64,000 nucleotides of DNA from Clostridia bacterium (GCA_045660545.1 JAZREA010000005.1:5416-69415); one strand, 5' to 3'; shown: positions 7,535 to 46,193, counted from the first letter of the stretch. Notes: generated from the letters alone by a model not told the origin. Numbers and translations are program-made.

Positions 7535-9432
7535 TGGTCTTCTCCTCTTTCTACTTGGTAGTCCTTGATATTTCGATATTGCAATAATTTATATTTGTTT
7601 ATTACTTCGTTTTGTTCCTCTGTTAAAGTTTCCTCCAGCGTTCCGGGGTAGCCGTTATGGTTCCTCGAAAGCAGAGGTGCAAAGTTAGACATTTCGTCAC
7701 AAAACGCAAAGAACGGCGGAAGCTCTAAATCCATATATTTAAACATTTTAACAGCAAGATAGTTTGCTGAAATGAGCTCTTGCTCGCCCTTTAACTGAGG
7801 CTTGGTGCTTCTTAAAAATGCCTTATTGCCGATTATAAGATAGTCGGTTGAGTACATATTTAAAAGATTCTGTGCATCCTTACTTTCGCCGCCTATGTCG
7901 AGCCCTAACTTTTTGAACATAGTCTGCTCGTCGTCAAGGTAGGGAAGGTGGTCACCGAAGAACACTAAAACTGTGGGCTCATCTATGGTATTTATATAGT
8001 CATAGATTGTTTCCAGCAAGACGTCTGCCGCCTTTATTCCGCCCAGGTAGTTGTTGATTATATAATATTCGTTTTCTGCAAGCTCGGGCGTTTTGGCAAC
8101 GTATTCCTTGCCGTAGGTGAGCCTTTTTTCGTTATACGGACCGTGGTTTTGTATCGTGATTGTGAAGCTGAAGTGGCCGCCCTCTTCACCGCTTTCGATA
8201 TGCTTTTGAAAGTCGGATATTATCATATCCGAAGCCAGAGTGTCGTCGGCGTAATAACCTGTGGACAGGGGTATCTCTACGCCTTGTGCCTCTAAGTCAT
8301 CTCTGGACGTAAAGCTGTCGAAGCCAAGCCTTGGATAAACGTTTTGCCTGTTATAAAACCAGGCGTTACCCGGGTGCATGGCGCTTGTTGTAAAGCCTGC
8401 TTCCTTAAAAAGCTGCACTATGGAGTAGGCGTCCTGGGTAATAAGCGTTTTGTATGCCGTAGGCATTGTGGGGCTGATTGCCGACGTGTTACAGCCCGTT
8501 AAAAACTCAAACTCGGTGCTTGATGTGGCCCCGCCAAAGCCCGGGACGTATATTTGTCCGTAGCAGGCTTTTTTTCTGAGATTGTTCATATATGAATAAG
8601 GGTTTTCGTCGACAAATTCGATATTTCCCCAATCCTGAACATCGGTGTAAGCTTCGCACATTATGGCTATAACATTTGGGGCGTCGGACGGGATTTTATT
8701 GTCCGGATACGCGGACAGTATTTCGTCCGTATTTTCACCTGAGTAACTGTCGGGCTTGTCATAGCGCATGACAGACGTATTGTTTATAAGAGAGTATACA
8801 AGGCCTTTGCTTGAAACGATTGTAGTTTCGTGGAAAATACCAAGATCCGCCAAAAGAGCGTTGTATATTCTGGTGTTTTGATATATCAGGCTATATGCTC
8901 CTGCGCTGAGCGCGAGGGTTACGACAATTCCTATAAGCGAGGTGAGAAGCCCCGGCCTTTTGTTTTTAACCCTTTTGGCAACAAACCAAAAGGACAAGGC
9001 ACACACGACGACTACCAGTATGACGATGCCGTCAACAGTAATGTCGTAGTTTTGGATAATATTTTTAGCCTCTTTTGCAAGAGAGAAATCTGTCGGATTA
9101 AGGGGCTCATCACGAAACTTGATTTTAAAGTGGTTGATGAGCAACAACACAGAGAGAACTATGTTTGTTATAATAAATGACCATGATATTTTGCCTATTG
9201 TGAAATACAAAAACAGCAAAAGTAAAAATATGGGGATTATGTTAAACAGCATAATGGGCCCATAAAGCTGAAGAACGTTGAAGTTTTGCGCAACCATCTG
9301 GTACAAAACTGTCCAGATTGCCATGACAAAAAGCAAAATAAGGGAACGGTGCAGAGAAAAATCTCCGTTATCGTTAAACGTTTTTTTGATGTAATTGAAA
9401 ATAGATTTAAAAAAAGATTTAACCTTTTGCAT
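7531..9432 (-). CDS. LTA synthase family protein (N-terminal TM bundle + sulfatase-like domain)
   Basis: 633 aa; five N-terminal TM segments then an alkaline-phosphatase/sulfatase-like domain ([18 protein letters not shown]); stop overlaps valS start. Confidence 0.75.
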
Positions 9433-9441
9433 AAATTAACC

Positions 9442-10086
9442 TCATTTTATTTTCAATATCTCCAATGGGTGAGAAACAATCGCCTGCGGACCGCCGCTTT
9501 GTAACTCTTTTTCGTCTCTGAATCCCCAGAGCGCACCTATTGTAAACAGGCCTGTGTTTTTACCTGTTTTCATATCTGTTAAGGTGTCTCCCGTGTATAT
9601 GCAGTCGCTCTTTGTAACGCCGAGGGATTTGATTACGGCCTCGGGCATATCGGGAGCGGGCTTTACGGGCACGCCTTCTTTTTGCCCCAGGCAGACGTCT
9701 ATAAGGTCGCCGAAAAGCTCGTCACAAATCTTTTTGACAGTGGAGTGGGGCTTGTTGGAGACAACGCCTGTTTTGCATCCGTTTTTCTTAAGATTTTGTA
9801 AAAGCTCTACAATTCCATCGTAGGGCTCGGTCAGATACATAAAGTCGTCGTCATATGTAGAGTTGTATTCGGGATAGACTTTGTCAAAAAACAGTTCCTC
9901 GTCCGCGCCGACCTCTGCGAGCATACGCTTTACAAGGGTTACCGCGCCGTCGCCTACCAAAAGCTTGTAACGCTCGGTTGGTATGGTGTCAAGACCATAT
10001 TTTGCAAGCGCGCGGTTTGCAAAGTAAGCTATTGAATTTAACGAGTTTACCAAAGTGCCATCCAAATCAAATAAATAAGTTCTCAT
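9442..10086 (-). CDS. HAD-superfamily hydrolase (phosphoglycolate phosphatase / PpaX-like)
   Basis: 214 aa; FDLDGTLVNS motif I, VSNK motif II, GDTLTD motif IV. Confidence 0.8.
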   Translation of the reverse strand: MRTYLFDLDGTLVNSLNSIAYFANRALAKYGLDTIPTERYKLLVGDGAVTLVKRMLAEVGADEELFFDKVYPEYNSTYDDDFMYLTEPYDGIVELLQNLKKNGCKTGVVSNKPHSTVKKICDELFGDLIDVCLGQKEGVPVKPAPDMPEAVIKSLGVTKSDCIYTGDTLTDMKTGKNTGLFTIGALWGFRDEKELQSGGPQAIVSHPLEILKIK

Positions 10087-10249
10087 TAGTATTTCTCCTT
10101 ATTAATTATATGCTTTTCTATTTTACTACAAAAGGCCTAAATAGTCAATAAATTTAGGAAAAAATCTGTCGTTTGCATATATAATGAAGAAAAAATTATA
10201 TATGATATTGAAAAATGCTAAAAAAAGGGCATAAATTTTTAAAAAAGTA

Positions 10250-10278
10250 TTGCTTTTGGAACAAAAGTATGTTAAAAT
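10250..10278 (+). promoter_or_regulatory. sigma-A-type promoter of the rimP-nusA-infB operon
   Basis: -35 TTGCTT 10250-10255, 17-nt spacer, TGT-TAAAAT extended -10 at 10270-10278. Confidence 0.6.
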
Positions 10279-10309
10279 ATGACACAGAAGGTATATTGGA
10301 TAAGTCAAG

Positions 10310-10340
10310 GAGTGGGGTTTCCCACTCTTTGTTTATTGTT
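10310..10340 (+). terminator. leader terminator/attenuator hairpin upstream of rimP
   Basis: GAGTGGG(10310-10316)/CCCACTC(10321-10327), 4-nt loop, then TTTGTTTATTGTTT; lies between the predicted promoter and the rimP SD. Confidence 0.55.
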
Positions 10341-10354
10341 TGGAGGTGTAAATT

Positions 10355-10816
10355 GTGATATTTTCAAAGACGGAAAAGCTTACTTACGATATGGCTTTGC
10401 CTATTGTTAACTCCAATGGTTACGAGATTTATGACGTTGAGTACGTTAAGGAAGGACCGCACTGGTTTTTGAGAGTTTTTATCGACCGTGAAGAAGGGGT
10501 TAATATCGATGACTGCGAGGTTATAAGCAGAAGCCTTGGTGCTTTGCTCGACGAGAAGGACTGCATCGGAAGTAATTACTTTTTAGAAGTATCCTCCCCG
10601 GGAATTGAGAGGAACCTGCGCCACGACGAGCACTTCCAAAGTGCAGTTGGGCAATCGGTAAAAATCAAGCTTTACAAGCAGGTGGGCGACCTAAAAGAGG
10701 TCGAGGGTGAGCTTATCGCCGCAGAACACGACAAGCTGACGGTTGACGCACAAAACGGCCCGATTGATGTGGAAAAGAAAAATATTGCAAAGGCTAATAT
10801 ATTATTTGAGTTTTAA
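10355..10816 (+). CDS. rimP: ribosome maturation factor RimP
   Basis: 153 aa, GTG start 9 nt after GGAGG; conserved position upstream of nusA; LEVSSPGIER motif. Confidence 0.9.
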   Translation: MIFSKTEKLTYDMALPIVNSNGYEIYDVEYVKEGPHWFLRVFIDREEGVNIDDCEVISRSLGALLDEKDCIGSNYFLEVSSPGIERNLRHDEHFQSAVGQSVKIKLYKQVGDLKEVEGELIAAEHDKLTVDAQNGPIDVEKKNIAKANILFEF

Positions 10817-10840
10817 TAAAACAGGAGGATTTTGGAAAAA

Positions 10841-11878
10841 ATGAGTGAAGATTTTGTAACATTACTTGAAGAGTTTGAAAAAGAAAAAGGCATAAGCCGC
10901 GACATTCTTATCGAAGCCCTGGAGACCGCACTTGTTTCTGCTTACAAAAGAAACTACGGAAGCAACCAGGACGTAAAGGTTGAAATCGACAGACAAAACG
11001 GCAGTATGAGAGTGTTTATAAAAAAGATTGTTGTTGCAGTTGTTGAGGATGCCGACACACAGATTTCGCTTGACGAGGCAAAGGAAATCAGCCCTTCTTA
11101 TTCCGAGGGGGATGTGGTTGAAATTGCTACTGCTCCACGTACATTCGGCCGTATTGCGGCACAGACTGCAAGACAGGTTGTTACACAAAGAATCAGGGAA
11201 GCAGAAAGAGGCATGTTCTACAACCAGTTTGCCGACAAGCTAAACGACATTGTTAGCGGTACTGTTCAGAGAGTTGAAAAGAGAAGTGTTATTTTAAGAG
11301 TTGGAAGCGCTGACGCAATGCTTATGCAACAGGAACAGGTGGAGGCAGACAACTATCATCCGGGCCAGCGTCTTAAACTTTACGTTGTAGACGTACAGAG
11401 AACTACAAAGGGTCCACAGGTTATTATTTCGAGAACTCACAGCGGGCTTGTAAGAAAGCTCTTTGAACTTGAAGTTCCTGAAATTGCAACAGGTGTTGTT
11501 GAGATTAAAGGCGTTTCGAGAGAAGCCGGTTCGAGAACGAAGATTGCTGTTTTTGCCGCTGATTCCAACGTCGACCCGATTGGCGCATGCGTAGGTCCTA
11601 AGGGCGCTCGTGTTCAGGCGATTGTTGACGAGCTTATGGGAGAGAAAATAGACATCATCAAGTACAGCGAAGACCCGGCTGAGTATGTTTCGGCTGCACT
11701 TGCTCCGACAACTGTCCTAAAATGCGACGTTAACGAGGCTGAAAAGTGCTGTACCGTTACCGTTAACGCAGACCAGCTTTCGCTCGCTATCGGTAAAGAG
11801 GGACAAAACGTACGCCTTGCAGCTAAGCTTACCGGTTGGAAAATCGACATAGTAAAAGCAGAAGGCGATGATGCTTAA
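10841..11878 (+). CDS. nusA: transcription termination/antitermination factor NusA
   Basis: N-terminus MSEDFVTLLEEFEKEKGISRDILIEALETALVSAYKRNY matches the NusA N-terminal domain. S1 and KH regions follow. The ATG at 10841 is preferred over the track TTG at 10832, which sits only 2 nt from the SD. Confidence 0.95.
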   Translation: MSEDFVTLLEEFEKEKGISRDILIEALETALVSAYKRNYGSNQDVKVEIDRQNGSMRVFIKKIVVAVVEDADTQISLDEAKEISPSYSEGDVVEIATAPRTFGRIAAQTARQVVTQRIREAERGMFYNQFADKLNDIVSGTVQRVEKRSVILRVGSADAMLMQQEQVEADNYHPGQRLKLYVVDVQRTTKGPQVIISRTHSGLVRKLFELEVPEIATGVVEIKGVSREAGSRTKIAVFAADSNVDPIGACVGPKGARVQAIVDELMGEKIDIIKYSEDPAEYVSAALAPTTVLKCDVNEAEKCCTVTVNADQLSLAIGKEGQNVRLAAKLTGWKIDIVKAEGDDA

Positions 11879-24435: not shown

Positions 24436-24630
24436 TTTTTACTCGTGTCAAGTTTATAAAATTTAAAACATTAGTTTGCCGATTTAAAATATTTACATAT
24501 ATCATCGGGAGCGAGAAAATCCAGTATTCTCGCGGGTTCTAATGGAATATTGTTTGGAAAAGAGCAGTGAAAAAATTGACTGAAAAATAGTAGGTCCTAT
24601 TATTCACTGTTCTCCTAACTTGACAAAATC
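24436..24630 (+). repeat. junction element copy B (~195 bp)
   Basis: Left TACTCGTGTCAAG 24440-24452, right CTTGACAAAATC 24619-24630; hairpin GCGAGAA(24511-24517)/TTCTCGC(24527-24533) compensated relative to copies A and C. Confidence 0.85.
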
Positions 24631-24664
24631 ATATAATAAACTATTTTTTTGTGAGGTGATAAAA

Positions 24665-25144
24665 ATGACAAGCTATCCATTTCTACCTTTATATAATAAA
24701 GATTCTAAAATATTAATTTTGGGAAGCTTTCCATCTGTAAAATCACGTGAGCAAAAGTTTTTTTATGGGCATCCGCAAAACCGCTTTTGGAAAGTTATTT
24801 CCTCTGTGTTTGAATGTAATGAGCCTAAGAACATTGAAGAAAAAAAGCACCTTTTGCTTGAAAACGGCATTGCACTTTGGGATGTTATAGCATCTTGTGA
24901 AATAATTGGAAGTGCTGACAGTACCATTAAAAATGTAAAAGTAAATGATATTTCAAAAATTTTGAAAGAAACAAATATAAATAAGATTTTTGTTAATGGT
25001 AAAACGGCAGAAAAATATTTTAAAAGGTATACAAAAAATCAAATAAATATAGATGCGTCATATTTGCCATCTACATCACCTGCGAATGCTGCCTGGACAC
25101 TAGAACGACTCGTTGATGAGTGGAAAGTTATTAAAGGCATTTGA
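24665..25144 (+). CDS. DNA-deoxyinosine (hypoxanthine) glycosylase, UDG-superfamily
   Basis: 159 aa from the ATG at 24665, 6 nt after GAGGTG. The track TTG at 24620 is the TTGACA box of the repeat. ILILGSFPSVKSREQKFFYGHPQNRFW and LPSTSPANA motifs. Confidence 0.8.
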   Translation: MTSYPFLPLYNKDSKILILGSFPSVKSREQKFFYGHPQNRFWKVISSVFECNEPKNIEEKKHLLLENGIALWDVIASCEIIGSADSTIKNVKVNDISKILKETNINKIFVNGKTAEKYFKRYTKNQINIDASYLPSTSPANAAWTLERLVDEWKVIKGI

Positions 25145-25195
25145 AAGGAATTGTTTTGAAGAAACAATTTAGCTATGGTGCAAATCGAAATAATT

Positions 25196-25324
25196 TGGCT
25201 TTGAACGTTAGTTTGAAATTCAGCTTAAAAGATTGGCATCTAAATTATACAGTCTTTATAAAGTTTGAAATGTTAGGGACAAAATTTTTGTGCCGAATAA
25301 TAGTGAAAAAATCTTGACAAAATT
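25196..25324 (+). repeat. junction element copy D (diverged and internally deleted)
   Basis: AACGTTAGTTTGAAATT resembles AACATTAGTTTGCCGATTT, and AGTGAAAAAATCTTGACAAAAT matches the 3' part and right end of copies B and C. Confidence 0.5.
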
Positions 25325-25368
25325 TATAAAATCGTGTATTCTATAACGATTTAGATTCAAATCTAAAT
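25314..25368 (+). promoter_or_regulatory. promoter plus ATTTAGA-N6-TCTAAAT palindrome in front of the NTase operon
   Basis: -35 TTGACA 25314-25319, 17-nt spacer, -10 TATTCT 25337-25342. Palindrome ATTTAGATTCAAATCTAAAT at 25349-25368 has the same half-sites and spacing as the two sdpR operators. Confidence 0.6.
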
Positions 25369-25397
25369 GGTAGGTATGGGAACGAAAGGAGAAAAAT

Positions 25398-26051
25398 ATG
25401 TATCACTATTTAGATGACAAAGAGTTTGTTAGTAAGATGAGAACTTTGTGCGGAGAGATTATGCAGGATTTATGTCATATTTTGAAAGAAGAGTATGATA
25501 TAGGTTCTACATTTTATTTGGTCGGTAGCGGTGCACGAAATCTTATTATGCAAAACAATAATGAACCTGTGGACTTAGATTACAATTTAGAAATTATCAG
25601 GTGTGAAGATTTTGAAGATCGTCGTTACATAAAAGAATGTGTGCGTAAGGCATTTAATAAGGCTTTAAATTTGAATGATTTAAATGATTGTGAGGACTCG
25701 ACATCTTCGTTGACATCAAAACCAATATATTTTACAGATGGAAATGATACAGAATTCAAAATTGATGTGTGCATAACTGTAAGGGATGAGGATGATATTT
25801 ATTACAGATTGATTCATAATAAAACAGGTTTTGTTTTTTATGATGAATATGCTTGGAATATTGCACCTAATTCAAAAAGAATAAATGAAAAGGTTGATTA
25901 TATTAAAAAATGCGGTAAATGGATATTGTTAAGGCAGCAGTATGAAAAAATCAAAAATATGTATTTGACTCGCAACGATTATAATCACCCATCATTTATT
26001 TGTTATGTGGAAGCAGTAAATAATGTATATGACTCAAGAAAAAGCTGGTAG
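25398..26051 (+). CDS. minimal Pol-beta-superfamily nucleotidyltransferase, SMODS/CD-NTase-like
   Basis: 217 aa; G43-S44...D59-L-D61 and D123 (KIDVCI) triad. The C-terminal WNIAPNS...GKWILLRQQY...PSFICYVEAV resembles the helical lobe of SMODS/OAS-like enzymes. Confidence 0.55.
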   Translation: MYHYLDDKEFVSKMRTLCGEIMQDLCHILKEEYDIGSTFYLVGSGARNLIMQNNNEPVDLDYNLEIIRCEDFEDRRYIKECVRKAFNKALNLNDLNDCEDSTSSLTSKPIYFTDGNDTEFKIDVCITVRDEDDIYYRLIHNKTGFVFYDEYAWNIAPNSKRINEKVDYIKKCGKWILLRQQYEKIKNMYLTRNDYNHPSFICYVEAVNNVYDSRKSW

Positions 26052-26064
26052 GAGGAAATAAAAT

Positions 26065-26715
26065 ATGTACTGTAAATATTGTGGAAGAATCATAGATGAT
26101 GATTCAAAATACTGTGTGAATTGCGGTAATAATATGAATAATGATAATTCTGGAACAGTGTCTGAGGATGCACCGAGTAGGGGTTTTGCTATTTTGGGAT
26201 TTTTTGTACCAATAATCGGACTTATACTTTATTTGATTTATGAACGCAAACAACCTAAAAGAGCAAAATCAGCTGGAAAAGGTGCTTTGGTTGGTTTTAT
26301 AACTAAAATAGTTATATATATAGTAATTGTAATCCTTTATGTAATTTTTGCATCTTCGATGATAAAAAGTACAATGGGCAATATTGATATTAACACTTAT
26401 AATATTGACTCTATGGAAGAAACAGCAGATTTTGATGTTGAGTTTGGCGAGTTTAAGGTGACGAACAATGGATATACATATGATACATCTTTGGAAGTAA
26501 CTGTCACAAATACAAGCGACAAACAAAAATCATTTTATATAACAGTTGAGGCAGTTGACGAGGATGGAACAAGACTTGATACTGATATGATAATGGCTGA
26601 TCGTTTGAATTCGAATCAAAAAGTTAAATTAGAAGCTTTTAAATATGTGCCACAAGAAAAGATTGAACAATACAAATCTGCTACATTTAAAGTGTTAGAA
26701 GTGCAAAAATACTAA
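26065..26715 (+). CDS. Zn-ribbon / two-TM membrane protein with C-terminal beta-rich domain
   Basis: 216 aa; CKYCGRIIDDDSKYCVNCG zinc ribbon, two TM helices separated by a Lys/Arg-rich loop, DUF4352-like beta domain; 13 bp downstream of the NTase gene. Confidence 0.6.
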   Translation: MYCKYCGRIIDDDSKYCVNCGNNMNNDNSGTVSEDAPSRGFAILGFFVPIIGLILYLIYERKQPKRAKSAGKGALVGFITKIVIYIVIVILYVIFASSMIKSTMGNIDINTYNIDSMEETADFDVEFGEFKVTNNGYTYDTSLEVTVTNTSDKQKSFYITVEAVDEDGTRLDTDMIMADRLNSNQKVKLEAFKYVPQEKIEQYKSATFKVLEVQKY

Positions 26716-26737
26716 CTATTTCATTGTGGAATATGGT

Positions 26738-26921
26738 TTGTGTCAAGTCCATACAATTTAAAACATTAGTTTGCCGATGTTGATATTTACATATACTATC
26801 GGGCAGGAAAATCTAATATTCCTGCGGATTCTAAGGAAAAGTGCAAAAGGAAAATTCAGTGAAAAAATCAGGAAAGGTTAGTAGGTCATATTATTGGCTG
26901 TTCTCCTAACTTGACAAAATC
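26738..26921 (+). repeat. junction element copy C (~184 bp)
   Basis: Left GTGTCAAG 26740-26747, right CTTGACAAAATC 26910-26921; hairpin GCAGGAA(26803-26809)/TTCCTGC(26819-26825). Confidence 0.85.
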
Positions 26922-34660: not shown

Positions 34661-35476
34661 ATGAACGAGATTTCAAGACCAAACTGCGACTTTAAAGACG
34701 GCGTTTGCATACACACAGACCAAGTGTACGATTCTTGCAAAGAAAAGGACTGTCTTGAAGACTTGCAGGTTATTCTTACTGCTGAGGGCCAATGTATTGT
34801 TGACCAGGCTATTAACGTAAAGGTGAGAAGTGCAGAAGTTATCTGGGTGTTTACGGACTTAGAACCCGTTCCATTTAACAAAGGCTTTTACACTGTTGAT
34901 ATAAAATATTTCTTTAAGGTTGTACTTGATGTATTCCGTGGCGTTGGACACCCGACACAAGTAGAAGGACTTGCGACATACGACAAAAAGGTTATTCTAT
35001 TTGGATCTGAGGGAAGCTCTAAGATGTATTCTTCATCTTACAACCCCGGCAACCAGATGCCTGTAATCTGGAAGAAGAACAATCTTCCCAAGGCGATTGT
35101 TGAGGTTGTAGACCCGATTGCTCTTTCTGCAAGGATTGTTGACTCTAACGAAAAGTGCTGCTGTTGCTGTTGTGATGTTTCAAGCATTCCTGACTCGATT
35201 TGCAGCTGCTTTAACCAGGAACTTGTTGTGCCTTCTGACAACAGGAAGGTTTTGGTTACCTTGGGTATATTCACAATCATCAAGATTGAGCGTAACGTAC
35301 AGCTTTTGATTCCTGCGATTGACTTTTGCGTTCCGACAAAGGAGTGCACAGCTGCTACTGAGCAAAACCCATGCGAGCTTTTTAACTCACTCAGGTTCCC
35401 TATGGATGAATTTTTCCCGCCACAAAGGGATGAATTCTCCGGAGACTGTGGCTGCGGCGGCACAAACGGTAAATAG
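34661..35476 (+). CDS. cysteine-rich protein of unknown function (CCCCCC run)
   Basis: 271 aa, about 18 Cys including six consecutive Cys codons and a C-terminal GDCGCGG; GGGAGG SD; own terminator. Confidence 0.7.
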   Translation: MNEISRPNCDFKDGVCIHTDQVYDSCKEKDCLEDLQVILTAEGQCIVDQAINVKVRSAEVIWVFTDLEPVPFNKGFYTVDIKYFFKVVLDVFRGVGHPTQVEGLATYDKKVILFGSEGSSKMYSSSYNPGNQMPVIWKKNNLPKAIVEVVDPIALSARIVDSNEKCCCCCCDVSSIPDSICSCFNQELVVPSDNRKVLVTLGIFTIIKIERNVQLLIPAIDFCVPTKECTAATEQNPCELFNSLRFPMDEFFPPQRDEFSGDCGCGGTNGK

Positions 35477-39301: not shown

Positions 39302-40399
39302 TTACTTTTTAAGAAGTGCGTTATATATTGCATCGAGGTTTTTAGCCATAGAGGAGGCAGAGAACTTTTCCTCAACGATTTTTGCCCCTTCATTACCCAT
39401 CGCTGACCTTTTTGACGGACTTTTTGAAAGCTCGACAATCTTTTTGGCCATAGCCTTTGCGTTGCCGTTTTCAACCACATAGCCGCTTACTCCGTCTGCA
39501 ACAACTTCCTTTGTTCCGCCGCTGTCTGTAACTACTACCGGCTTTTTAAGGCTCATAGCCTCAATTACGGAAAGAGCAAGAGCTTCTTTCTTAGAGGATA
39601 AAACGCTTATGTCTATTATATTGGTTATGTCGTTTATGTTTTCTGTATATCCTAAAAAGACCGTTTTGTCTCGAAGTGCTGACCTTTTAACCTTGGCCTT
39701 TAATTCCTTTTCGCGGCTACCTGTACCGACGATTAAAAACTTTAAGTTTTCGTTTTCCTTTACAGCGAGCTTCGCCGCGTTTAAGAAAACGTCGTGGTTT
39801 TTAACCGGTTCGAGCCTTGCTACCATTGCGGCTATTACGTCGTCCTTTGAAAAGCCCAGGCTTTCTTTAAGCTTCGCCTTTTTTTGTGCGGAGATGGGGG
39901 TTAACGGGAATATACCGTTGTAGACCAAAAAACGCTTTTTGTCTTTGATACCATCGTCTTTTAAGTTGTTGGTTACTGCCTCGGACACGCCGATTGACGC
40001 GTCGCTTAAACAGTTGTTAATTAACTTATAAACCAGGCTTTTGGGGAAGCTCTTTTTTTCTTCAAGACAATGGCGGGTATTAACCGTCTTTACACCTAAG
40101 TATTTTGCGGCTATTCTTCCGGACAAGCTCGAATGTGTGTGAACTATGTCGGGCTTTATACTGCGCATAATACGTACAAACGAAAGGACGCCTTTTACCG
40201 AAAACGACTTATCCTCAATTCCGTCAACCTCTACAACCTTGATGTCAAGCGACAAAACACGGTCCTTTAATATTGAATTGTGAGGCAGTGCTACGGTTAT
40301 GTCGTATTTTGTATTGTCGGCTGAACGCAGATAGTTTAAAAGCCAGGCGCCCGCGCCTCCGAAATTTGTATCTGTTATAACCTGAAGTATTTTAACCAT
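39302..40399 (-). CDS. GT4-family glycosyltransferase
   Basis: 365 aa; GT-B fold pattern with a C-terminal E-x7-E-like region (LALSVIEAMSLKKPVVVTDSGGTKEVV). Confidence 0.8.
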   Translation of the reverse strand: MVKILQVITDTNFGGAGAWLLNYLRSADNTKYDITVALPHNSILKDRVLSLDIKVVEVDGIEDKSFSVKGVLSFVRIMRSIKPDIVHTHSSLSGRIAAKYLGVKTVNTRHCLEEKKSFPKSLVYKLINNCLSDASIGVSEAVTNNLKDDGIKDKKRFLVYNGIFPLTPISAQKKAKLKESLGFSKDDVIAAMVARLEPVKNHDVFLNAAKLAVKENENLKFLIVGTGSREKELKAKVKRSALRDKTVFLGYTENINDITNIIDISVLSSKKEALALSVIEAMSLKKPVVVTDSGGTKEVVADGVSGYVVENGNAKAMAKKIVELSKSPSKRSAMGNEGAKIVEEKFSASSMAKNLDAIYNALLKK

Positions 40400-40697
40400 A
40401 AATTCCCTCCGCGGTCTTTATGAAAAGACTATATTATTATTCTAATCCAAAATAAAAGAATTTGCAAGCGCAAAATTAATCGGCATCATTTTATTGGCTT
40501 TTCCGATTATATATTGCGCTTTTTTTCGTATAAAAAAAGCGGAATGTGAGCCTTTTGTATGGAGAATACTCGCGATTTTACTGCATTTTTTGCCTTTTAA
40601 GTGCCTCAAAACAATGCCAATATTTGCGTAGCTTTAAGTGTTAGACTTATCAATGTACCGAGGCTCAGCAAATCGGTAAAAGAAAGGAGGTGTAAAA

Positions 40698-41324
40698 GTG
40701 AAAAAGAAGAACGAAGACTTTAAAACCGCATCCGAAATCATGACGGACATAACCGAGCAGGAGCCGGATGACAAACTGCAAAGTGAATCATACGAGGGCT
40801 ATTTGGGGATTGAATCTGAAAAGTCTGATGAGCTGGCAGAGATTGAACAGGCGGCTTCTGTTAATGACGACTTCGAGGCTTTGGACGACACGGAGCTTGA
40901 AGTGCTTTATGAAGAAGCTTTATCTGTACCGGTGGACATGAGAAACGAAAATCAGTCGGCCTTGTTGGAACAGACGAAGGAAAGGTACTTAAGGATAAAG
41001 TTTTACCGACAATTTGAAGATGCGGCCAAATGGTTTGAAACCGAGTATGATGATAAAAACTTTGAGGAAATTGTTACGAGCGATGGGTTTTTAAGGTTTG
41101 CATCGGGAGTAAAACTGCCGATAAGGGAGTTGATAAGAAGGTATATGGAAATGTATGAAAAAAACGAAGCTTATTTGGGAGCTAAAGGACCTGGCAGTGC
41201 TTCAAACGTTGGAGCAACCGCCGGGAAGGACTATTTTTCAAGAGCTGAGGTTGAAAAAATGTCCGCTGAAGAAGTAAGCAAAAATCTTGAAATTATTAAA
41301 AAATCTATGAAAAAATGGAAATAG
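40698..41324 (+). CDS. phage scaffolding-like protein (acidic N-terminus, helical C-terminus)
   Basis: 208 aa, GTG after AAGGAGG; Asp/Glu-rich; sits immediately upstream of the coat gene. Confidence 0.5.
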   Translation: MKKKNEDFKTASEIMTDITEQEPDDKLQSESYEGYLGIESEKSDELAEIEQAASVNDDFEALDDTELEVLYEEALSVPVDMRNENQSALLEQTKERYLRIKFYRQFEDAAKWFETEYDDKNFEEIVTSDGFLRFASGVKLPIRELIRRYMEMYEKNEAYLGAKGPGSASNVGATAGKDYFSRAEVEKMSAEEVSKNLEIIKKSMKKWK

Positions 41325-41338
41325 GAGGAAAATTAAAA

Positions 41339-42166
41339 ATGAGTATTAGAAATTTTGTGCCATTGGTATGGGCAAAGGAAATTGAACAAAACAGAGAAAA
41401 TATGATGGTGGCTACAAAGCTTTGTAACCGCGACTACGAAGGCGACATCAAGGAGCTGGGCGACAAGGTTAAAATCAACGGCGTTTCGCGTCCTACAATC
41501 ACCGATTATGACGATGTAAACGGTCTTGGCGACTTCGAAAGATTACAGGACCAGTCAACAATGCTTGAAATTACGGAGAGTAAGGCGTTCCACTTCTACG
41601 TTGGCGACATAGACAAGCGTCAGTCGGCAGGAAACATTATGAACGCAGAACTTAAAGAGGCGGCGGCAGCCTTGGCTGAGGTTATGGACTCTTATGTTTA
41701 TTCTCTTTATGATGAGGCGGGTATTGTTACTGAGGTTGATTCTTTGAACGAAGATAACGTTTTAAGCGTTATTAACGAAACACTGGGTAAGCTTTGGAAA
41801 AACAACGTACCTACTACGGAAACAGTTTCACTTGAAGTTACACCTGAGTTTCTTACAAAATTACAGATGGCTAAACTTTTGGTTGATACAGACAACAGCG
41901 GTGTGTTGGAGGGCGGTATTTCCCACAAATTAAAGACATTTAACATTGACGTTTACATGTCTAACAACCTTCCGAACGAAGACGGCACAGACATCTGTAT
42001 TTTAAGAACAAAGAAGGCTATTTCCTTCGCAGAGCAGCTTAAAGAAATTAAGGCTTACGAGCCGCAAAACTTCTTTGGCGAGGCTGTTAAGGGATTGCAG
42101 GTTTACGGTGCTAAGGTTATAAGACCTGATGAATTGGCGGTTATTAAAGTTGCCGCATACAACTAA
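41339..42166 (+). CDS. phage major capsid protein (P22 coat-like family)
   Basis: 275 aa from the ATG after GGAGG. The N-terminus FVPLVWAKEI...NRDYEGDIKELGDKVKING matches, from memory, the pattern of P22-coat-type capsid proteins. Confidence 0.65.
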   Translation: MSIRNFVPLVWAKEIEQNRENMMVATKLCNRDYEGDIKELGDKVKINGVSRPTITDYDDVNGLGDFERLQDQSTMLEITESKAFHFYVGDIDKRQSAGNIMNAELKEAAAALAEVMDSYVYSLYDEAGIVTEVDSLNEDNVLSVINETLGKLWKNNVPTTETVSLEVTPEFLTKLQMAKLLVDTDNSGVLEGGISHKLKTFNIDVYMSNNLPNEDGTDICILRTKKAISFAEQLKEIKAYEPQNFFGEAVKGLQVYGAKVIRPDELAVIKVAAYN

Positions 42167-42180
42167 GGAGGAGAAAAAGA

Positions 42181-42516
42181 ATGGCTAATATTACAAAGAC
42201 TTATGCTAAAAGAGACAACGCAGTTGTACTTAACAAAACAGCGGGTGTTGCAACACAGACTATTGCATGCGACACAGCTGACGAGAGAACAGCAATTATT
42301 ATAGAAAACACATCCGCAAGCGAAGCTGCTACTGTAACAGTAGTTGCGGGCAACGGTATGAGAAGCTCTATCGGTGATTTGGAAGTGGAGGTTGCTCCTT
42401 CTTCCGAAGTTGTTGTGGGTCCGCTTGACAGTATGAGGTTTAAAAATCTTGACGACGGCACAATTACAGTAAGAATAAGCGGCGGCGAAACAAAGATTAA
42501 GCCTTTTGCTCTTTAA
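42181..42516 (+). CDS. small beta-rich phage structural protein (possible decoration protein)
   Basis: 111 aa, strong SD, position after the coat gene; no family recognised. Confidence 0.4.
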   Translation: MANITKTYAKRDNAVVLNKTAGVATQTIACDTADERTAIIIENTSASEAATVTVVAGNGMRSSIGDLEVEVAPSSEVVVGPLDSMRFKNLDDGTITVRISGGETKIKPFAL

Positions 42517-42535
42517 AAATTAAACAGCTTTAATT

Positions 42536-42568
42536 CGGCCGTTCCCGTAAGTTGACGGGAACGGCTTT
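42536..42568 (+). terminator. strong rho-independent terminator inside the phage-like module
   Basis: GCCGTTCCCGT(42536-42546)/ACGGGAACGGC(42553-42563) then TTTT. Confidence 0.85.
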
Positions 42569-42604
42569 TAAAAACAGTATTTTAAAAATTGCGGAGGTGA
42601 ATTT

Positions 42605-43150
42605 ATGACATACAAAGAGAGTATAAAACAGGCGCTTTTAAAGACGGACTCGGAAGAGACGGAGTATGATGCGGCGATATTTCCTGTACTTGCAAACGAG
42701 GCGCAAATGTACATAGCAAAGTATGGAACTCATATTTGCAGGCAGGCGGAGTATGTTGTCACATCGCCATTTTGCAAGGTGGCTCTACCAAAAGATTTTT
42801 ACAGAGTTTCGCCGCCCGGGCTTGTTCACAAGGCGGACAGGCAGACTGGTGCGGAGTATTCCATTTTGGGTGATGAAATTGAGCTTTGCGAGTGCGGAGA
42901 GTTTGTTTTACATTATTACGCCCTACCTACAGACCTTACTTTGGATGACGCAGACCTTGAAACTTACGAATACGAGGTAAGGGGAGACGCCCATATTGCT
43001 ATTCCCTCGTACATAGGGTATCAGCTTGTTAAGACGGACGACGTACAGCTTGCACAGATTTTAAAAAACGAGTGGGACAAATATATGATGCTTTTCGACG
43101 ATGACAAAAAAGCTGTGCAAAAGAAAATTAAGAACGTTGTGAGGTGGTAG
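42605..43150 (+). CDS. phage head-completion/adaptor-like protein (positional call)
   Basis: 181 aa, SD GGAGGTG; occupies the slot of P22 gp4-type adaptors after the coat gene; no sequence motif recognised. Confidence 0.35.
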   Translation: MTYKESIKQALLKTDSEETEYDAAIFPVLANEAQMYIAKYGTHICRQAEYVVTSPFCKVALPKDFYRVSPPGLVHKADRQTGAEYSILGDEIELCECGEFVLHYYALPTDLTLDDADLETYEYEVRGDAHIAIPSYIGYQLVKTDDVQLAQILKNEWDKYMMLFDDDKKAVQKKIKNVVRW

Positions 43151-43152
43151 TT

Positions 43153-45111
43153 ATGGGAATAAAGTTTAAAGAGGCAGCGTTGCCTGATGTTTCTGCACTG
43201 GACTTTCGGGTTGATTACTGGGACGGCGTAAACCAAACTCGGGCGGCACAAAAAAACAGCGAGATGGCGAACTGCCAAAATATGTCGATTGACAACTTTC
43301 CTTATGCGTCGCCGAGAAAGCCGCGACAAAAACTTGTAGACGAGCAGGGAATAAAGAGGATATATAAGATAGAGGACGGCAAGATATACTGCATAGACAG
43401 TTCGGACAGGCTTTGCTATTTTAAAGACGGAGTAAAGACTATGCTTACGCCAAAGAACTTAAACGATGAGGAAGAAGAGGCCTTTGTTTACAACTGTTTT
43501 TGTACAAACAACTATGACAAAAGCTCAATATTTTATCCGCAAATGGTCTATACGGACTCGGATGGTGTTTATAGAGAAATAGGGCACAAGGTTAATTATA
43601 CTAAACAATTTTTAACCTCTGATGAATCGGATTACAAATACCATAAGGAAACGTACTTTTGGGAGCTTGAAAAACCACCGTGGGACCTTAGCGTGTACGA
43701 GGTTATGGATTTTAAGTCTGACAACATACCAATTGAAAACCTTGATGCGAGAACCTTTGGGCTTGTTTTTATTCTTGCGGACGGAGAAGAGAGCTTGCCT
43801 ATAACCGGAAACGACTGGGACCGGCCAAAGGTGAGGGCAAGAGTGTTCGACAAAAACGGAAAAATAAAGTCCTACTCAAAGCCAGGCGGATACGGAAGTA
43901 CTAAAAACGAAGACGAAACATACCAGGCGGAATGTTTTAGCGGACGGTTTGAATCTTTTAAAAATTATAACAAATGCGTTATGACAATACCGGAGGATAT
44001 AACTCTTGAAAAAGGAGATTACCTGGTATTGACTGTCGGTTTTTACGAAAGAGAAACGTTTTCGGAATCCGATACTGCGATGAGCCGCGCTGGCAGGAAC
44101 CTTAAAGCTATGCTTGAGGATGGAACACACAGCTACATCGCTGTCGGAGAACCAAAAGAGCTGAATATGTGCAACGGCAGTATGATAGATTACGGAGTAA
44201 TTTACAACAACAGAATTGTTGGTGTAAGAGGAAGTAAAATTTGTGCATCGGCTCTGGGTGATTTTTCAAACTTCTGGGAATATGTTGATGCGACAGGTAA
44301 CCCGTCTGCCACGGGTGCATACGCTACCGACGTGGGCAGTCAGGGAGACTTTACCGGTATATGTGTTTATCAGAACATGCTGCTTTTGTTTAAGAAAAAT
44401 ATTGTATATGAGATGTACGGCTCTATGCCTTATACAATTAATGAGCTTTGCTCGACAGGGTGTGTTGACAACGACAGCGTGTGCGAGATAGACGGGGTGC
44501 TTTACTGGGCTTCGCCAAAAGGGGTGGTCCGTTACAGCGGCGGTGTGCCAAGTGTGGTTTCTACAAACGTCAATATTGATACGAAAGGTCCGTGCAAGGC
44601 GGGAACGGACGGAAGAAAATACTACCTATATAATGGAGAGAAAATATATGTTTATGACACACGCTATAACGTATGGCATGCAGAGGACTCGATTAAAGTA
44701 AAGATGTTTTACGGGGATTCGACCGACCTTTACATTCTGACTGACGACGGGATTTACAAAACGTACGGTGGATTAGAGACAGTTGAATGGGAGTTTGAGA
44801 CAAAAGACTTTACATTTTCGACACAGATGAGGAAAAATCTGTCTAAGATATGGGTGAGGGCACATATGAGTTCTAACACAAGGCTTGAAGTTTACGTAAG
44901 ACAAGACGGCGGAGAGTGGAGGAGGACGGCTGTTAAGACTGCGGAAAAGGACGAGATGTTTAACTTTAAGCTGAGGGTTAAAAAGTGCGACAGTTTTGCG
45001 ATGAAGTTTGTTGGCAAAGGGGACGTTAAAATTTTGGACGTTCACGGCAGGGTGACGGTCGGAACAAACAGACACAAGGCGGGAAACAGCCTTAATATTT
45101 ACAGGAGGTAG
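43153..45111 (+). CDS. large phage structural protein with beta-propeller-like repeats (positional analogue of P22 gp10-type neck/stabilisation proteins)
   Basis: 652 aa from the ATG at 43153 after GAGGTGG; recurring YxxDG/KIYxxD and VLYWASPKGVVRYSGG-type motifs. Confidence 0.4.
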   Translation: MGIKFKEAALPDVSALDFRVDYWDGVNQTRAAQKNSEMANCQNMSIDNFPYASPRKPRQKLVDEQGIKRIYKIEDGKIYCIDSSDRLCYFKDGVKTMLTPKNLNDEEEEAFVYNCFCTNNYDKSSIFYPQMVYTDSDGVYREIGHKVNYTKQFLTSDESDYKYHKETYFWELEKPPWDLSVYEVMDFKSDNIPIENLDARTFGLVFILADGEESLPITGNDWDRPKVRARVFDKNGKIKSYSKPGGYGSTKNEDETYQAECFSGRFESFKNYNKCVMTIPEDITLEKGDYLVLTVGFYERETFSESDTAMSRAGRNLKAMLEDGTHSYIAVGEPKELNMCNGSMIDYGVIYNNRIVGVRGSKICASALGDFSNFWEYVDATGNPSATGAYATDVGSQGDFTGICVYQNMLLLFKKNIVYEMYGSMPYTINELCSTGCVDNDSVCEIDGVLYWASPKGVVRYSGGVPSVVSTNVNIDTKGPCKAGTDGRKYYLYNGEKIYVYDTRYNVWHAEDSIKVKMFYGDSTDLYILTDDGIYKTYGGLETVEWEFETKDFTFSTQMRKNLSKIWVRAHMSSNTRLEVYVRQDGGEWRRTAVKTAEKDEMFNFKLRVKKCDSFAMKFVGKGDVKILDVHGRVTVGTNRHKAGNSLNIYRR

Positions 45112-45113
45112 AT

Positions 45114-45332
45114 ATGAATATTGAAAACATTGATGTAGGTGGTATAACAGACATCGAGGGAGTAAGGAGGGTTATCGAAAAGCTTGTGGACTGCATTTTC
45201 GAGATGAACCGTGAGATTAAAAGAGAACTGGGCAATTTGACAAGCCAAAATGTGAAAAGTCTTGATTTTAATATTACAAGAGTTGAAAATGCGGACAGAG
45301 TATTTCCTGATAACGCCAAAGAGGAGGAGTGA
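45114..45332 (+). CDS. small phage-module protein
   Basis: 72 aa, SD AGGAGG, translationally coupled on both sides. Confidence 0.4.
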   Translation: MNIENIDVGGITDIEGVRRVIEKLVDCIFEMNREIKRELGNLTSQNVKSLDFNITRVENADRVFPDNAKEEE

Positions 45333-45334
45333 AT

Positions 45335-46153
45335 ATGGAAGATACATTAAGAAAATACGCAAAAAACAAATATATCTGGGAGAACGAAACGGATAAAAAC
45401 AGTGCGGTTGCCAAACAGGCTAACGCCGAAAACAAAGCTATAAGACAGCAGCTTGGAATTGCTGAGGACACTATGAATTACAAGGAGTTTGTAAGTAACT
45501 ACGTTAATACCAGCCCATATTATTCGCAGGCCTCGAAGGTAAGCGTTGACCCGAAATTCAAAAGGGAGAGCGACAGACTCTACGACGCTATTAACAATTT
45601 TAGTTACAACGCGGACAAGGACCCGACGTATAAGGCGTATTCAGACGCTGCCAAGAGGGAAAGCGATTCGGCACAAAAGCAGACGTACGCAAACCTCGCT
45701 AAAATGTCGGGAGGAAGAAACAGCTCTTATGCATCTGCGGCTATGGGACAGGTGGGGCAGGCTTATGCAAATAAGACCGCGGAGTACGCAAACACTCTTG
45801 CAAAAGAAGCGTATGATAAGCTTGTTAAGAGATACGAAATGAGCCTTCAACGTCAGAAGCAGGCAGTCGACGAGGCAAACAGTGAATACAAAAAACTTGT
45901 TGAACTGGGCGATAAAGATGTAGAGAACAAGAGGAAAGAACTTGACTACTACTACAAGATTGACGACTACCAGACAAAGCTTATTGAAAACGGTATTTTA
46001 AACCAAAAGAATATGTACGAATTTAAGCGTTGGCAAGAGGATCCGAATTATGAAATTAAGGACAAGGAACTTGCGAAGGCTATCGGCGAATATTCTGCGT
46101 ATAACTGGCTTAAAAATAACGGAACTGATTATTTTTATAACAAGTACTATTAA
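45335..46153 (+). CDS. coiled-coil-rich phage-module protein
   Basis: 272 aa from the ATG after GAGGAGGAG; Ala/Lys/Glu/Gln heptad-like central region, Tyr-rich C-terminus. Confidence 0.4.
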   Translation: MEDTLRKYAKNKYIWENETDKNSAVAKQANAENKAIRQQLGIAEDTMNYKEFVSNYVNTSPYYSQASKVSVDPKFKRESDRLYDAINNFSYNADKDPTYKAYSDAAKRESDSAQKQTYANLAKMSGGRNSSYASAAMGQVGQAYANKTAEYANTLAKEAYDKLVKRYEMSLQRQKQAVDEANSEYKKLVELGDKDVENKRKELDYYYKIDDYQTKLIENGILNQKNMYEFKRWQEDPNYEIKDKELAKAIGEYSAYNWLKNNGTDYFYNKYY

Positions 46154-46193
46154 AAAAGAGGACGGTGCGGATTAAATCCGCACCGTTTTTTTA
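46153..46193. terminator. bidirectional terminator between the phage-like module and the hydrolase gene
   Basis: ACGGTGCGGAT(46162-46172)/ATCCGCACCGT(46176-46186) with flanking A and T tracts. Confidence 0.85.

Follow-up and report, generated by a model that had tools for sequence, protein, structure and literature searches.

The known system closest to the element considered here is FpGTA, a podovirus-like gene transfer agent (GTA) of Faecalibacterium prausnitzii that is encoded by two operons located 125 kb apart (Borodovich et al., Nat Commun 2026, PMC12946183). Its operon I (10.5 kb) is a contiguous array of TerS, TerL, portal, scaffold, and capsid genes together with further conserved genes, and its operon II encodes a fibre, a receptor-binding protein, a holin, and an endolysin (PMC12946183). 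FpGTA is documented by 40-nm particles, by proteomics, and by approximately 8.5 kb of packaged host DNA; it is near-ubiquitous in its host genus, and its TerS lacks a DNA-binding domain (PMC12946183). The accessions of its capsid and portal proteins are RCH50849.1 and RCH50851.1. GTA-like packaging was also reported for other Ruminococcaceae, Oscillospiraceae, and Christensenellaceae, where the responsible genes were not found (PMC12946183). We analysed a stretch of 64,000 nucleotides from a Clostridia bacterium (GCA_045660545.1, JAZREA010000005.1:5416-69415), referred to here as the window, in which positions 40698-46153 of the + strand carry seven intact, co-directional open reading frames (ORFs) with host genes on either side. 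We propose, with a probability of about 0.58, that these seven genes are the head-neck operon of a dispersed, domesticated, podovirus-derived (GTA-like "viriform") element and not a prophage.

Profile searches of the seven proteins, together with fold searches for the 652-aa and 111-aa proteins, identified a capsid protein, an adaptor, and a nozzle, and left the 72-amino acid (aa) and 272-aa proteins without assignment. Matches of the 275-aa protein are PHROG 267 (major head protein; E 2.7e-38) and, right at the cut-off, the Pfam family Phage_capsid_4 ('P22 coat protein'), and a search of the PDB with its family profile retrieves the solved capsid protein 8e16 gp6 (E 6.5e-40). On these matches it is securely predicted to be an HK97-fold major capsid protein, and an initial annotation of this DNA was right to call it a coat protein. 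The 181-aa protein matches Pfam SU10_adaptor (E 0.0023), as do 4 of the 14 members of its family (best E 3.2e-7), and it also matches PHROG 13046 (E 7e-11) and, weakly, the PDB entry 'Head to tail adaptor Gp50'. We confidently predict it to be an SU10-type head-tail adaptor, a functional analogue of P22 gp4 and T7 gp11. PDB sequence-profile searches were not significant for the nozzle, 272-aa, 111-aa, and scaffold proteins, and the identity of the 652-aa protein was resolved by fold search only. An AlphaFold2 (AF2) model of this protein, built from a 33-sequence alignment with a predicted local distance difference test score (pLDDT) of 80, was matched by Foldseek to T7 gp12, the SU10 nozzle, Kp9, P22 gp10, and Sf6 (E 1e-16 to 1e-9, probability 1.0), and the C-terminal half of the protein matches PHROG 511 (E 1e-29). 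The modelled fold points securely to a podovirus tail nozzle or hub with a beta-propeller.

The 208-aa protein has an acidic N-terminal half and no Pfam or PHROG match. A hidden Markov model (HMM) of its family finds homologues between the portal and capsid genes, and its C-terminus is similar to the scaffold of the human-gut phage contig MT836592.1 (L001). Because its family fills the portal-capsid slot in dozens of phage loci, we regard the 208-aa protein as a secure prediction of a scaffolding protein by conserved position. The 111-aa protein is all-beta, matches PHROG 24894 (function unknown; E 2.5e-8), and has homologues directly 3' of the capsid gene in most related loci; a fold search with its single-sequence AF2 model (pLDDT 60) retrieved nothing below E 0.01. 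A role in decorating the capsid, or as another capsid accessory, is conceivable. The family HMM of the 72-aa protein places it directly after the nozzle gene in head-only modules and related phages alike. The 272-aa protein is helical and has no significant Pfam, PHROG, or PDB match. The initial annotation had likened the operon to the P22 gene order 8-5-4-10-26. The 8-5-4-10 portion of this analogy holds functionally, given the adaptor family and a nozzle fold like that of P22 gp10, but the gp26 portion is unsupported; the phage homologues of the 272-aa protein (347-390 aa) are found after the lysis genes, and before a MuF toxin gene where one is seen, and not beside the nozzle gene.

Relatives with a full phage layout are contig MT836592.1 and the metagenomic loci L010/11, L020, L022, and L176. 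Their gene order is TerS (with a helix-turn-helix, HTH, domain), TerL, a gene for ~75 aa, portal (SU10/P22 type), scaffold, capsid, in some cases the 111-aa gene, adaptor, nozzle, and a gene for ~70 aa, followed by tail fibre, holin, amidase, a 272-like protein, and a MuF-type toxin. As had been anticipated in the initial annotation, terminase and portal genes lie immediately upstream of the scaffold gene in these true phages. By gene order, the window module is a contiguous middle block of such a phage late operon. L020 is a genuine temperate phage that carries genes for DnaD, DnaB, an integrase, a tail fibre, an amidase, and a holin. Capsid identity is 62-64% in L010, L020, and L022. Scaffold proteins are 203-226 aa long (one is 240 aa) in head-only modules versus 256-325 aa in phages, the scaffold of the window being ~90 aa shorter than phage scaffolds. 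In three metagenome-assembled genomes (MAGs), a head-only module co-occurs with a related phage cluster that is complete: CALDNB01 (L018 and L020), JAZNGX01 (L021 and L022), and IJM94. Giant polymorphic toxins of the MuF_C type are also encoded by the related phages.

No terminase or portal gene was found in the 64-kb window using tblastn with the MT836592.1 terminase and portal or using family HMMs, which leaves a span free of TerL and portal genes of 40 kb upstream and 18 kb downstream of the module. Likewise, the window contains no fibre, lysis, integrase, or replication genes. A search for att-like direct repeats around 40.4-46.2 kb found none that flank the module, only short chance matches inside ORFs. 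In GC content, the module (0.41-0.44) does not differ from the adjacent DNA, and each of the seven ORFs is of full length when compared with its homologues. These results bear out, for the window, the initial description of an undecayed module of host-like base composition that has no portal, terminase, tail, lysis, or integration genes beside it. The seven ORFs are all present as first delineated, with tight or overlapping junctions (43150/43153, 45111/45114, and 45332/45335), as are the opposite-strand GT4 neighbour 298 bp upstream and the bidirectional terminator and SleB-type hydrolase gene downstream. An intact or decaying SU10/P22-like prophage was ruled out, as there are no flanking phage modules in the window and the seven ORFs are full length.

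The head-neck operon occurs widely. Capsid homologues with 61-100% identity fall into many clusters, and dozens of 90% clusters, originating from gut samples of pig, yak, goat, and sheep, were retrieved in the capsid search. The portal-less operon always begins with the scaffold gene, has no TerL or portal gene within 10 kb, and occurs in at least four host contexts. In the window, it lies between the GT4 gene and the SleB-type gene with lon (context 1). It adjoins LytR in L002-4, L014, and L015 (context 2), lies between dnaG-HD-flavodoxin and yebC in L005-7, L017, and L019 (context 3), and lies between polIV and AraC-malic enzyme genes in L177 (context 4). L021 has the upstream side of context 3 but not yebC, and the short contig L016 covers the module start only. 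The lineage of L005 (65% identity; L017, L019, L021, and L016) carries an insertion between the adaptor and nozzle genes (L005 11776-12695) that encodes a Phage_holin_4_1 holin and a second adaptor paralogue, neither of which is present in the window operon. In L002 (14753-19562), the head operon continues into genes for an SLT-domain protein, a 297-aa protein, and a PG_binding_1 plus Ntox44 toxin-domain protein, and ends with two small ORFs, possibly immunity genes.

Within a context, the module is syntenic across GTDB species, with identities of 84-98% for the flanking host proteins, 93-100% for the capsid protein, and 69-93% for the other module proteins. The module appears, from these identities, to diverge at a pace that resembles that of the flanking host genes. 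For all seven genes, the ratio of nonsynonymous to synonymous substitution rates (dN/dS) is 0.01-0.22, with dS ranging from 0.5 to saturated; it is 0.01-0.06 for the capsid gene, 0.07-0.14 for the 72-aa gene, and 0.05-0.07 for the 272-aa gene. Evolution is faster in the tail-side proteins than in the capsid protein. Because the same boundary recurs, the module is syntenic across species, and all genes are under purifying selection at high to saturated synonymous divergence, the very recent prophage deletion remnant contemplated in the initial annotation is refuted; we also saw no close relative with a full prophage at this site and no decay here. As judged from these comparisons, the module is a long-lived, selected, vertically inherited chromosomal operon. 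The best capsid relative in scans of IMG/VR was 44% identical, so this lineage is not represented in viral catalogues. In the genome scan for capsid relatives, of which the 80 best genome-level matches were inspected, the best match was 86%.

The missing packaging genes of such elements have a counterpart elsewhere. A portal-profile scan of metagenomes and a portal protein search found orphan operons with the layout (TerS-like)-TerL-~70 aa-portal, which end right after the portal gene and have housekeeping genes on either side. These operons lie between groES-groEL and MBL, aroA, and gltX (L094), between upp and galT and larA (L174), between mfd-dnaJ-prsA and barstar and ispE genes (L178-181), and between the his operon-nadE-hlyIII and eamA (L182). 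Judged by gene order, they are the exact complement of the head-neck operon. The portal pair from L174 and L182 has a dN/dS of 0.046, indicating purifying selection. Portals of orphan operons are 534-550 aa long versus 571-656 aa in phages, and small proteins encoded 5' of orphan TerL (66 and 113 aa), which share a C-terminal V(V/I)IKDDI tail, are TerS candidates without the HTH domain that is present in phage TerS. The short scaffold, short portal, and HTH-less TerS candidates resemble traits reported for GTAs (smaller heads and non-specific TerS), and by this analogy the differences would point to domestication and a GTA-like nature.

Several observations connect the orphan operons to the head modules. 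Portal P0264 (L174) and nozzle P0158 (from a module of the L177 type) both list a contig of identical size, 121,433 bp, so head and TerL-portal operons of the nearest relatives apparently share one contig. The L177-type capsid protein is 89% identical to that of the window, and the host flanks of L174 and L177 have a tetranucleotide correlation of r = 0.96, each being the other's best match. The three JGI samples that yielded head modules L002, L003, and L004 (3300031555, 3300024268, and 3300018495) also yielded portal P0237. A mini-operon within a few kb of the L174 operon encodes an XRE repressor and, divergently, a 63-aa ORF, an ArpU/RinA-like activator, a TerS (Terminase_2), and a 327-aa ORF. 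A single, vertically inherited TerL-portal operon serving all head modules was ruled out, as the TerL proteins of L178 and L174 belong to different families. Exchange with phages has probably affected both the packaging cassette and the tail side, and the split may have originated or been re-established on more than one occasion. As to the individual orphan operons, a barstar gene lies directly 3' of the L178 portal gene (L178 11836-12159), and TerL of L182 seems to start with ATT at 8509 (ATG in L174), with the same Shine-Dalgarno (SD) sequence, GAAGGGAGGTG, ahead; it was called as 363 aa because the gene caller truncated it over the ATT start.

Upstream of the scaffold gene, the window carries a promoter-like TGCCAAY box that lies 23-24 nucleotides (nt) before an extended -10 element. 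The same layout is found 5' of the scaffold gene in L002, L003, L004, L014, L015, and L177, and also 5' of orphan TerL genes, namely that of L174 and, as a TGATAT variant, that of L182; TerL-portal operons thus have this promoter type in 2 of the 4 loci examined. The strict TGCCAAY pattern has no further occurrence in the 2.46 Mb of fetched loci, the pattern having been derived from the very loci on which its uniqueness was scored. This distribution is a hint that the head operons and two TerL-portal operons may be co-regulated through the box. A single promoter box uniting all loci was ruled out, because L178/L179 and the L005-type modules have ATGTCGY boxes and not TGCCAAY. These repeated ATGTCGY boxes, for example AAATGTCGTTTTATGTCGC, occur 5' of the scaffold gene in L005 (9120-9390), L017, L019, L016, and L021, and 5' of the TerL operon in L178 (7796-7960) and L179. 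The head operons that bear them are those of the 65%-identity lineage, and the TerL-portal operon that bears them is of another lineage; the boxes may be operator sites of a shared regulator. A stem-loop in the 5' untranslated region (UTR) of the window operon has equivalents in L002, L014, L015, and L177. We dropped a claim of structured RNA for this hairpin, as there is one compensatory pair only, and an Rfam scan of the window found no known RNA.

We envisage that the window operon would be transcribed from its own promoter (the TGCCAAY box with the extended -10 element). The shortened scaffold and the capsid protein would build procapsids, with the small capsid-associated protein also being supplied, and the adaptor and nozzle would close and extend the portal vertex once DNA is packaged. 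The portal, which would nucleate the shell, and the terminase, which would fill it, would be made from a separate chromosomal (TerS-like)-TerL-small ORF-portal operon, with regulators, TerS, fibre, and lysis functions encoded at further loci. We infer that this genome has a partner TerL-portal operon and that particles are made; by analogy, these would contain host DNA, as in FpGTA, or would have a killing function, as in PBSX. The initial annotation had also raised the ideas of a satellite-like module with partners elsewhere and of a domesticated capsid-forming system. The orphan operons of the closest relatives argue for partners elsewhere, and recurrence, synteny, and purifying selection support domestication; nothing supports a mobile satellite, as there are no integrase genes, replication genes, or att sites at the module.

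A number of points weigh against a dispersed, domesticated element. Expression, particle formation, and packaging by the window's element are predictions from its genes. We found no genes for a tail fibre, receptor binding, or lysis that could be assigned to it, nor did we see a partner TerL-portal operon within the 64 kb of its own genome. The same-contig link between P0264 and P0158 rests on the identical size of the contigs, and the sample link between P0237 and L002-4 is co-occurrence, not physical linkage. TerL proteins of sister lineages (L178 versus L174) are 28% identical and their portals 55%, compared to 90% for the head capsids, indicating either that the packaging cassette was replaced or that there is no fixed partner. 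The TGCCAAY box is absent from the L178 TerL operon, which carries ATGTCGY repeats. Finally, the nozzles of the window, L002, and L177 show no more similarity to one another than to that of phage L176 (54-62%), which fits an ongoing exchange with phages. A more elaborate model, which we consider rather doubtful, takes up this last point: a conserved chromosomal "capsid and neck chassis" would be paired with interchangeable packaging cassettes, and its nozzle would be swapped with those of circulating phages. In this model, the host would retain a stable particle core, and recombination with infecting podophages would replace its motor and its receptor-side components. To our knowledge, such modular GTA evolution, or host-phage commensalism, has not been described so far.

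Other explanations share part of this evidence. A helper-dependent, satellite-like cassette without packaging genes dedicated to it, for which a related temperate podophage would supply the portal, terminase, fibres, and lysis functions and which would yield particles of chimeric or remodelled make-up to the advantage of host or cassette, seems unlikely to us. It is consistent with the three MAGs that carry a head-only module together with a complete related phage, among them the temperate phage L020 co-resident with the L018 module, and with the mosaic relationships of nozzle and TerL to phages. However, co-residence may just mirror which hosts the ancestral phage family could infect. Integrase, replication genes, att sites, and pac-like features are all missing from the module, its locus is fixed across species, and no second capsid locus was seen in 5 of the 7 GTDB species that carry the module; moreover, with orphan TerL-portal operons in the nearest relatives, a helper is not needed. 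A dispersed particle system of the same make-up might instead serve PBSX-like killing or toxin delivery rather than gene transfer, a role that the authors of the FpGTA study leave possible for their system (PMC12946183). The toxin genes and two small ORFs into which the L002-type module runs on, the immunity-type barstar gene 3' of the L178 portal gene, and the MuF_C toxins of related phages agree with such a role. Yet these toxin genes are lineage-specific add-ons, the window operon has no toxin or immunity gene and meets a terminator right after the 272-aa gene, and podovirus capsids are not known as bacteriocins, so we consider this function quite improbable.

Alternatively, host-made capsid, scaffold, adaptor, and nozzle proteins might poison the assembly of incoming related podophages. 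The operon's own promoter-like box with its extended -10 element, the co-occurrence with related phages in some MAGs, and the faster evolution of the tail-side proteins relative to the capsid protein, as an arms race would predict, are compatible with such interference. A capsid dN/dS of 0.01-0.06 and the retention of seven genes in order fit instead a need for self-assembly, the module sits among housekeeping genes, and interference leaves the orphan TerL-portal operons with the same promoter box unexplained; we hold it to be very unlikely. The gene order of the module, being the middle of the late operon of related phages, is also what would be left by an inert, deletion-derived prophage remnant whose decay is yet to come. 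This origin is extremely improbable in view of the identical left boundary in at least four host contexts, the cross-species synteny, and a dS of 0.5 to saturated at which seven ORFs are nevertheless intact with a dN/dS of 0.01-0.2. An origin of the related loci as assembly chimeras is unlikely because independent assemblies agree.

Features of the head-neck operon and its immediate surroundings in the window. Functional names of operon genes are predictions.
Feature	Position	Strand	Description
GT4/GT1 glycosyltransferase gene	39302-40399	-	Upstream neighbour, divergent, 298 bp from operon
Promoter-like box	40615-40647	+	TGCCAATATTTGCGTAGCTTTAAGTGTTAGACT; TGCCAAY-N16-TGnTA; extended -10 TGnTAnnnT
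5'-UTR hairpin	40656-40678	+	TACCGA/TCGGTA stem, 11-nt loop; SD AAGGAGGTG follows
Scaffold gene	40698-41324	+	208 aa; GTG start; AAAGGAGGTG ahead of start
Capsid gene	41339-42166	+	275 aa
111-aa gene	42181-42516	+	
Adaptor gene	42605-43150	+	181 aa
Nozzle gene	43153-45111	+	652 aa
72-aa gene	45114-45332	+	
272-aa gene	45335-46153	+	
Bidirectional intrinsic terminator	46156-46192		17-bp stem, T runs on both strands; closes operon

Beyond the terminator lies a convergent gene for a SleB-type protein (Hydrolase_2 plus PG_binding_1), followed by lon and engB; nagB is also among the flanking host genes. The SleB-type gene was ruled out as a member of the module, as it is missing from the other host contexts. 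By eye, from ORF translations, the rest of the window looks like core chromosome, including valS, folC, nusA-infB-truB-pnp, whiA, and dnaE, as well as pfkA, hisS, aspS, recJ, relA, and lon. At 24600-26750 there is a low-GC island (0.30-0.31 versus ~0.43) with genes for a UDG-superfamily protein of 174 aa, a 217-aa ORF without a Pfam match, and a 216-aa zinc-ribbon membrane protein; the island was probably acquired horizontally. A 271-aa ORF at 34661-35476, located between pfkA-side genes and an AraC-type regulator, has a cysteine-rich N-terminus and no Pfam match at E 0.001.

Two further groups of loci came to light. Many Streptomyces chromosomes (L037, L043-L066, L071, and L087) carry a capsid homologue of 36-38% identity at ~10001-10860 of the locus, and, after it, a protein of the 111-aa type; a second copy is often present 1.5-3 kb farther downstream. 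TerL and portal genes were not found within 10 kb in most of these loci using HMMs built from Clostridia phage relatives, and the loci may represent another portal-less capsid locus. A rearranged phage-like cluster comprising TerL, a very short scaffold of 135-149 aa, capsid, and a 124-aa protein, with a DUF722 activator and a PAS-GerE regulator upstream, was found in L008/L027 (Acidaminobacterium chupaoyuni / Oscillospiraceae LBM23126, CP176394.1), L024 (Intestinimonas butyriciproducens), L023, L028, and L029. In L008/L027, the 124-aa gene is followed by host-type coaX and ECF-transporter genes and then by an adaptor gene, a gene for a 616-aa protein, and more, and the portal gene lies ~9 kb downstream of the capsid gene. 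Such rearranged clusters may be a second kind of domesticated element.

The locus offers a concrete genetic candidate for the unexplained GTA-like packaging in gut Clostridia. A possible reason why the genes were identified in Faecalibacterium alone is that, in other Clostridia, particle genes may be split into small operons that escape prophage and GTA finders, the suggested split being head-neck genes as here, with terminase-portal genes, TerS and regulators, and fibre and lysis genes elsewhere. Markers for such elements could be an operon that begins with the gene for a short scaffold, a TerL-~70 aa-portal operon of the orphan type, and the TGCCAAY box, and these could tie the elements to observed DNA-packaging events. 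The recurrent break of the late operon between the portal and scaffold genes is unusual, and it provides a natural case for how a phage late operon is dismantled yet kept working.

Several known systems resemble the window element in part. The operon parallels P22 (gp8-gp5-gp4-gp10-gp26) in its predicted scaffold, coat, adaptor, and hub analogues and in their order, but no sequence relationship is detectable beyond the fold, and the window has an additional 111-aa gene. Temperate podophages of gut Clostridia (L010, L020, L022, L176, and MT836592.1) share the order scaffold, capsid, adaptor, nozzle, and ~70 aa, with a small beta protein after the capsid in some loci only. They differ in having TerS(HTH)-TerL-~75 aa-portal upstream, a tail fibre after the ~70-aa gene, holin, amidase, and MuF toxins. 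Their scaffolds and portals are also longer, at 280-304 aa and 571-656 aa, respectively, and a check of L020 for replication and integrase genes was positive. Capsid-forming phage-inducible chromosomal islands (PICIs) and other satellites likewise have their own capsid genes and lack tail genes. However, satellites are equipped with an integrase, att sites, and modules for replication (primase) and regulation, and they usually have a terminase and portal of their own. The window locus has none of these, and a phage satellite (PICI/cf-PICI) was ruled out because these modules are absent and the locus is syntenic and not mobile. An encapsulin nanocompartment was ruled out as well: the operon has a predicted portal-binding adaptor and tail nozzle, and the shell protein matches phage capsid families and has no encapsulin Pfam match.

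Among GTAs, those of the Alphaproteobacteria (RcGTA and CcGTA) are also domesticated, vertically inherited, and under purifying selection, with several loci and host control. Their ancestry is unrelated. They have siphovirus-like tails and a main cluster that keeps terminase, portal, protease, and capsid genes together, whereas the window element has a scaffold, a podovirus adaptor and nozzle, and no identified protease. The window operon is chromosomal, vertically inherited, and under purifying selection, as is characteristic of GTAs, and no replication, integration, or lysogeny genes or att sites accompany its structural genes. Our literature search found no description of a split head-neck and terminase-portal system, FpGTA being the nearest. 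The contiguous operon I that defines FpGTA has no equivalent in the window, which contains neither TerL nor portal; here, the break falls between portal and scaffold, and the TerL-portal genes form an operon of their own in the nearest relatives. FpGTA operon II, with its fibre and lysis genes, is without an identified counterpart in the window element, and no Faecalibacterium locus is among the 80 best genome matches. Both are podovirus-type and phage-derived, come from gut Clostridia, and would be laid out in separate chromosomal operons without replication or lysogeny genes. The FpGTA content of TerS, TerL, portal, scaffold, capsid protein, and conserved short-tail proteins would be shared by the window operon together with its putative partner loci. 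This likeness is drawn from gene content and layout. On the evidence available, FpGTA is the closest known system, and the window element would, by analogy, work like it.

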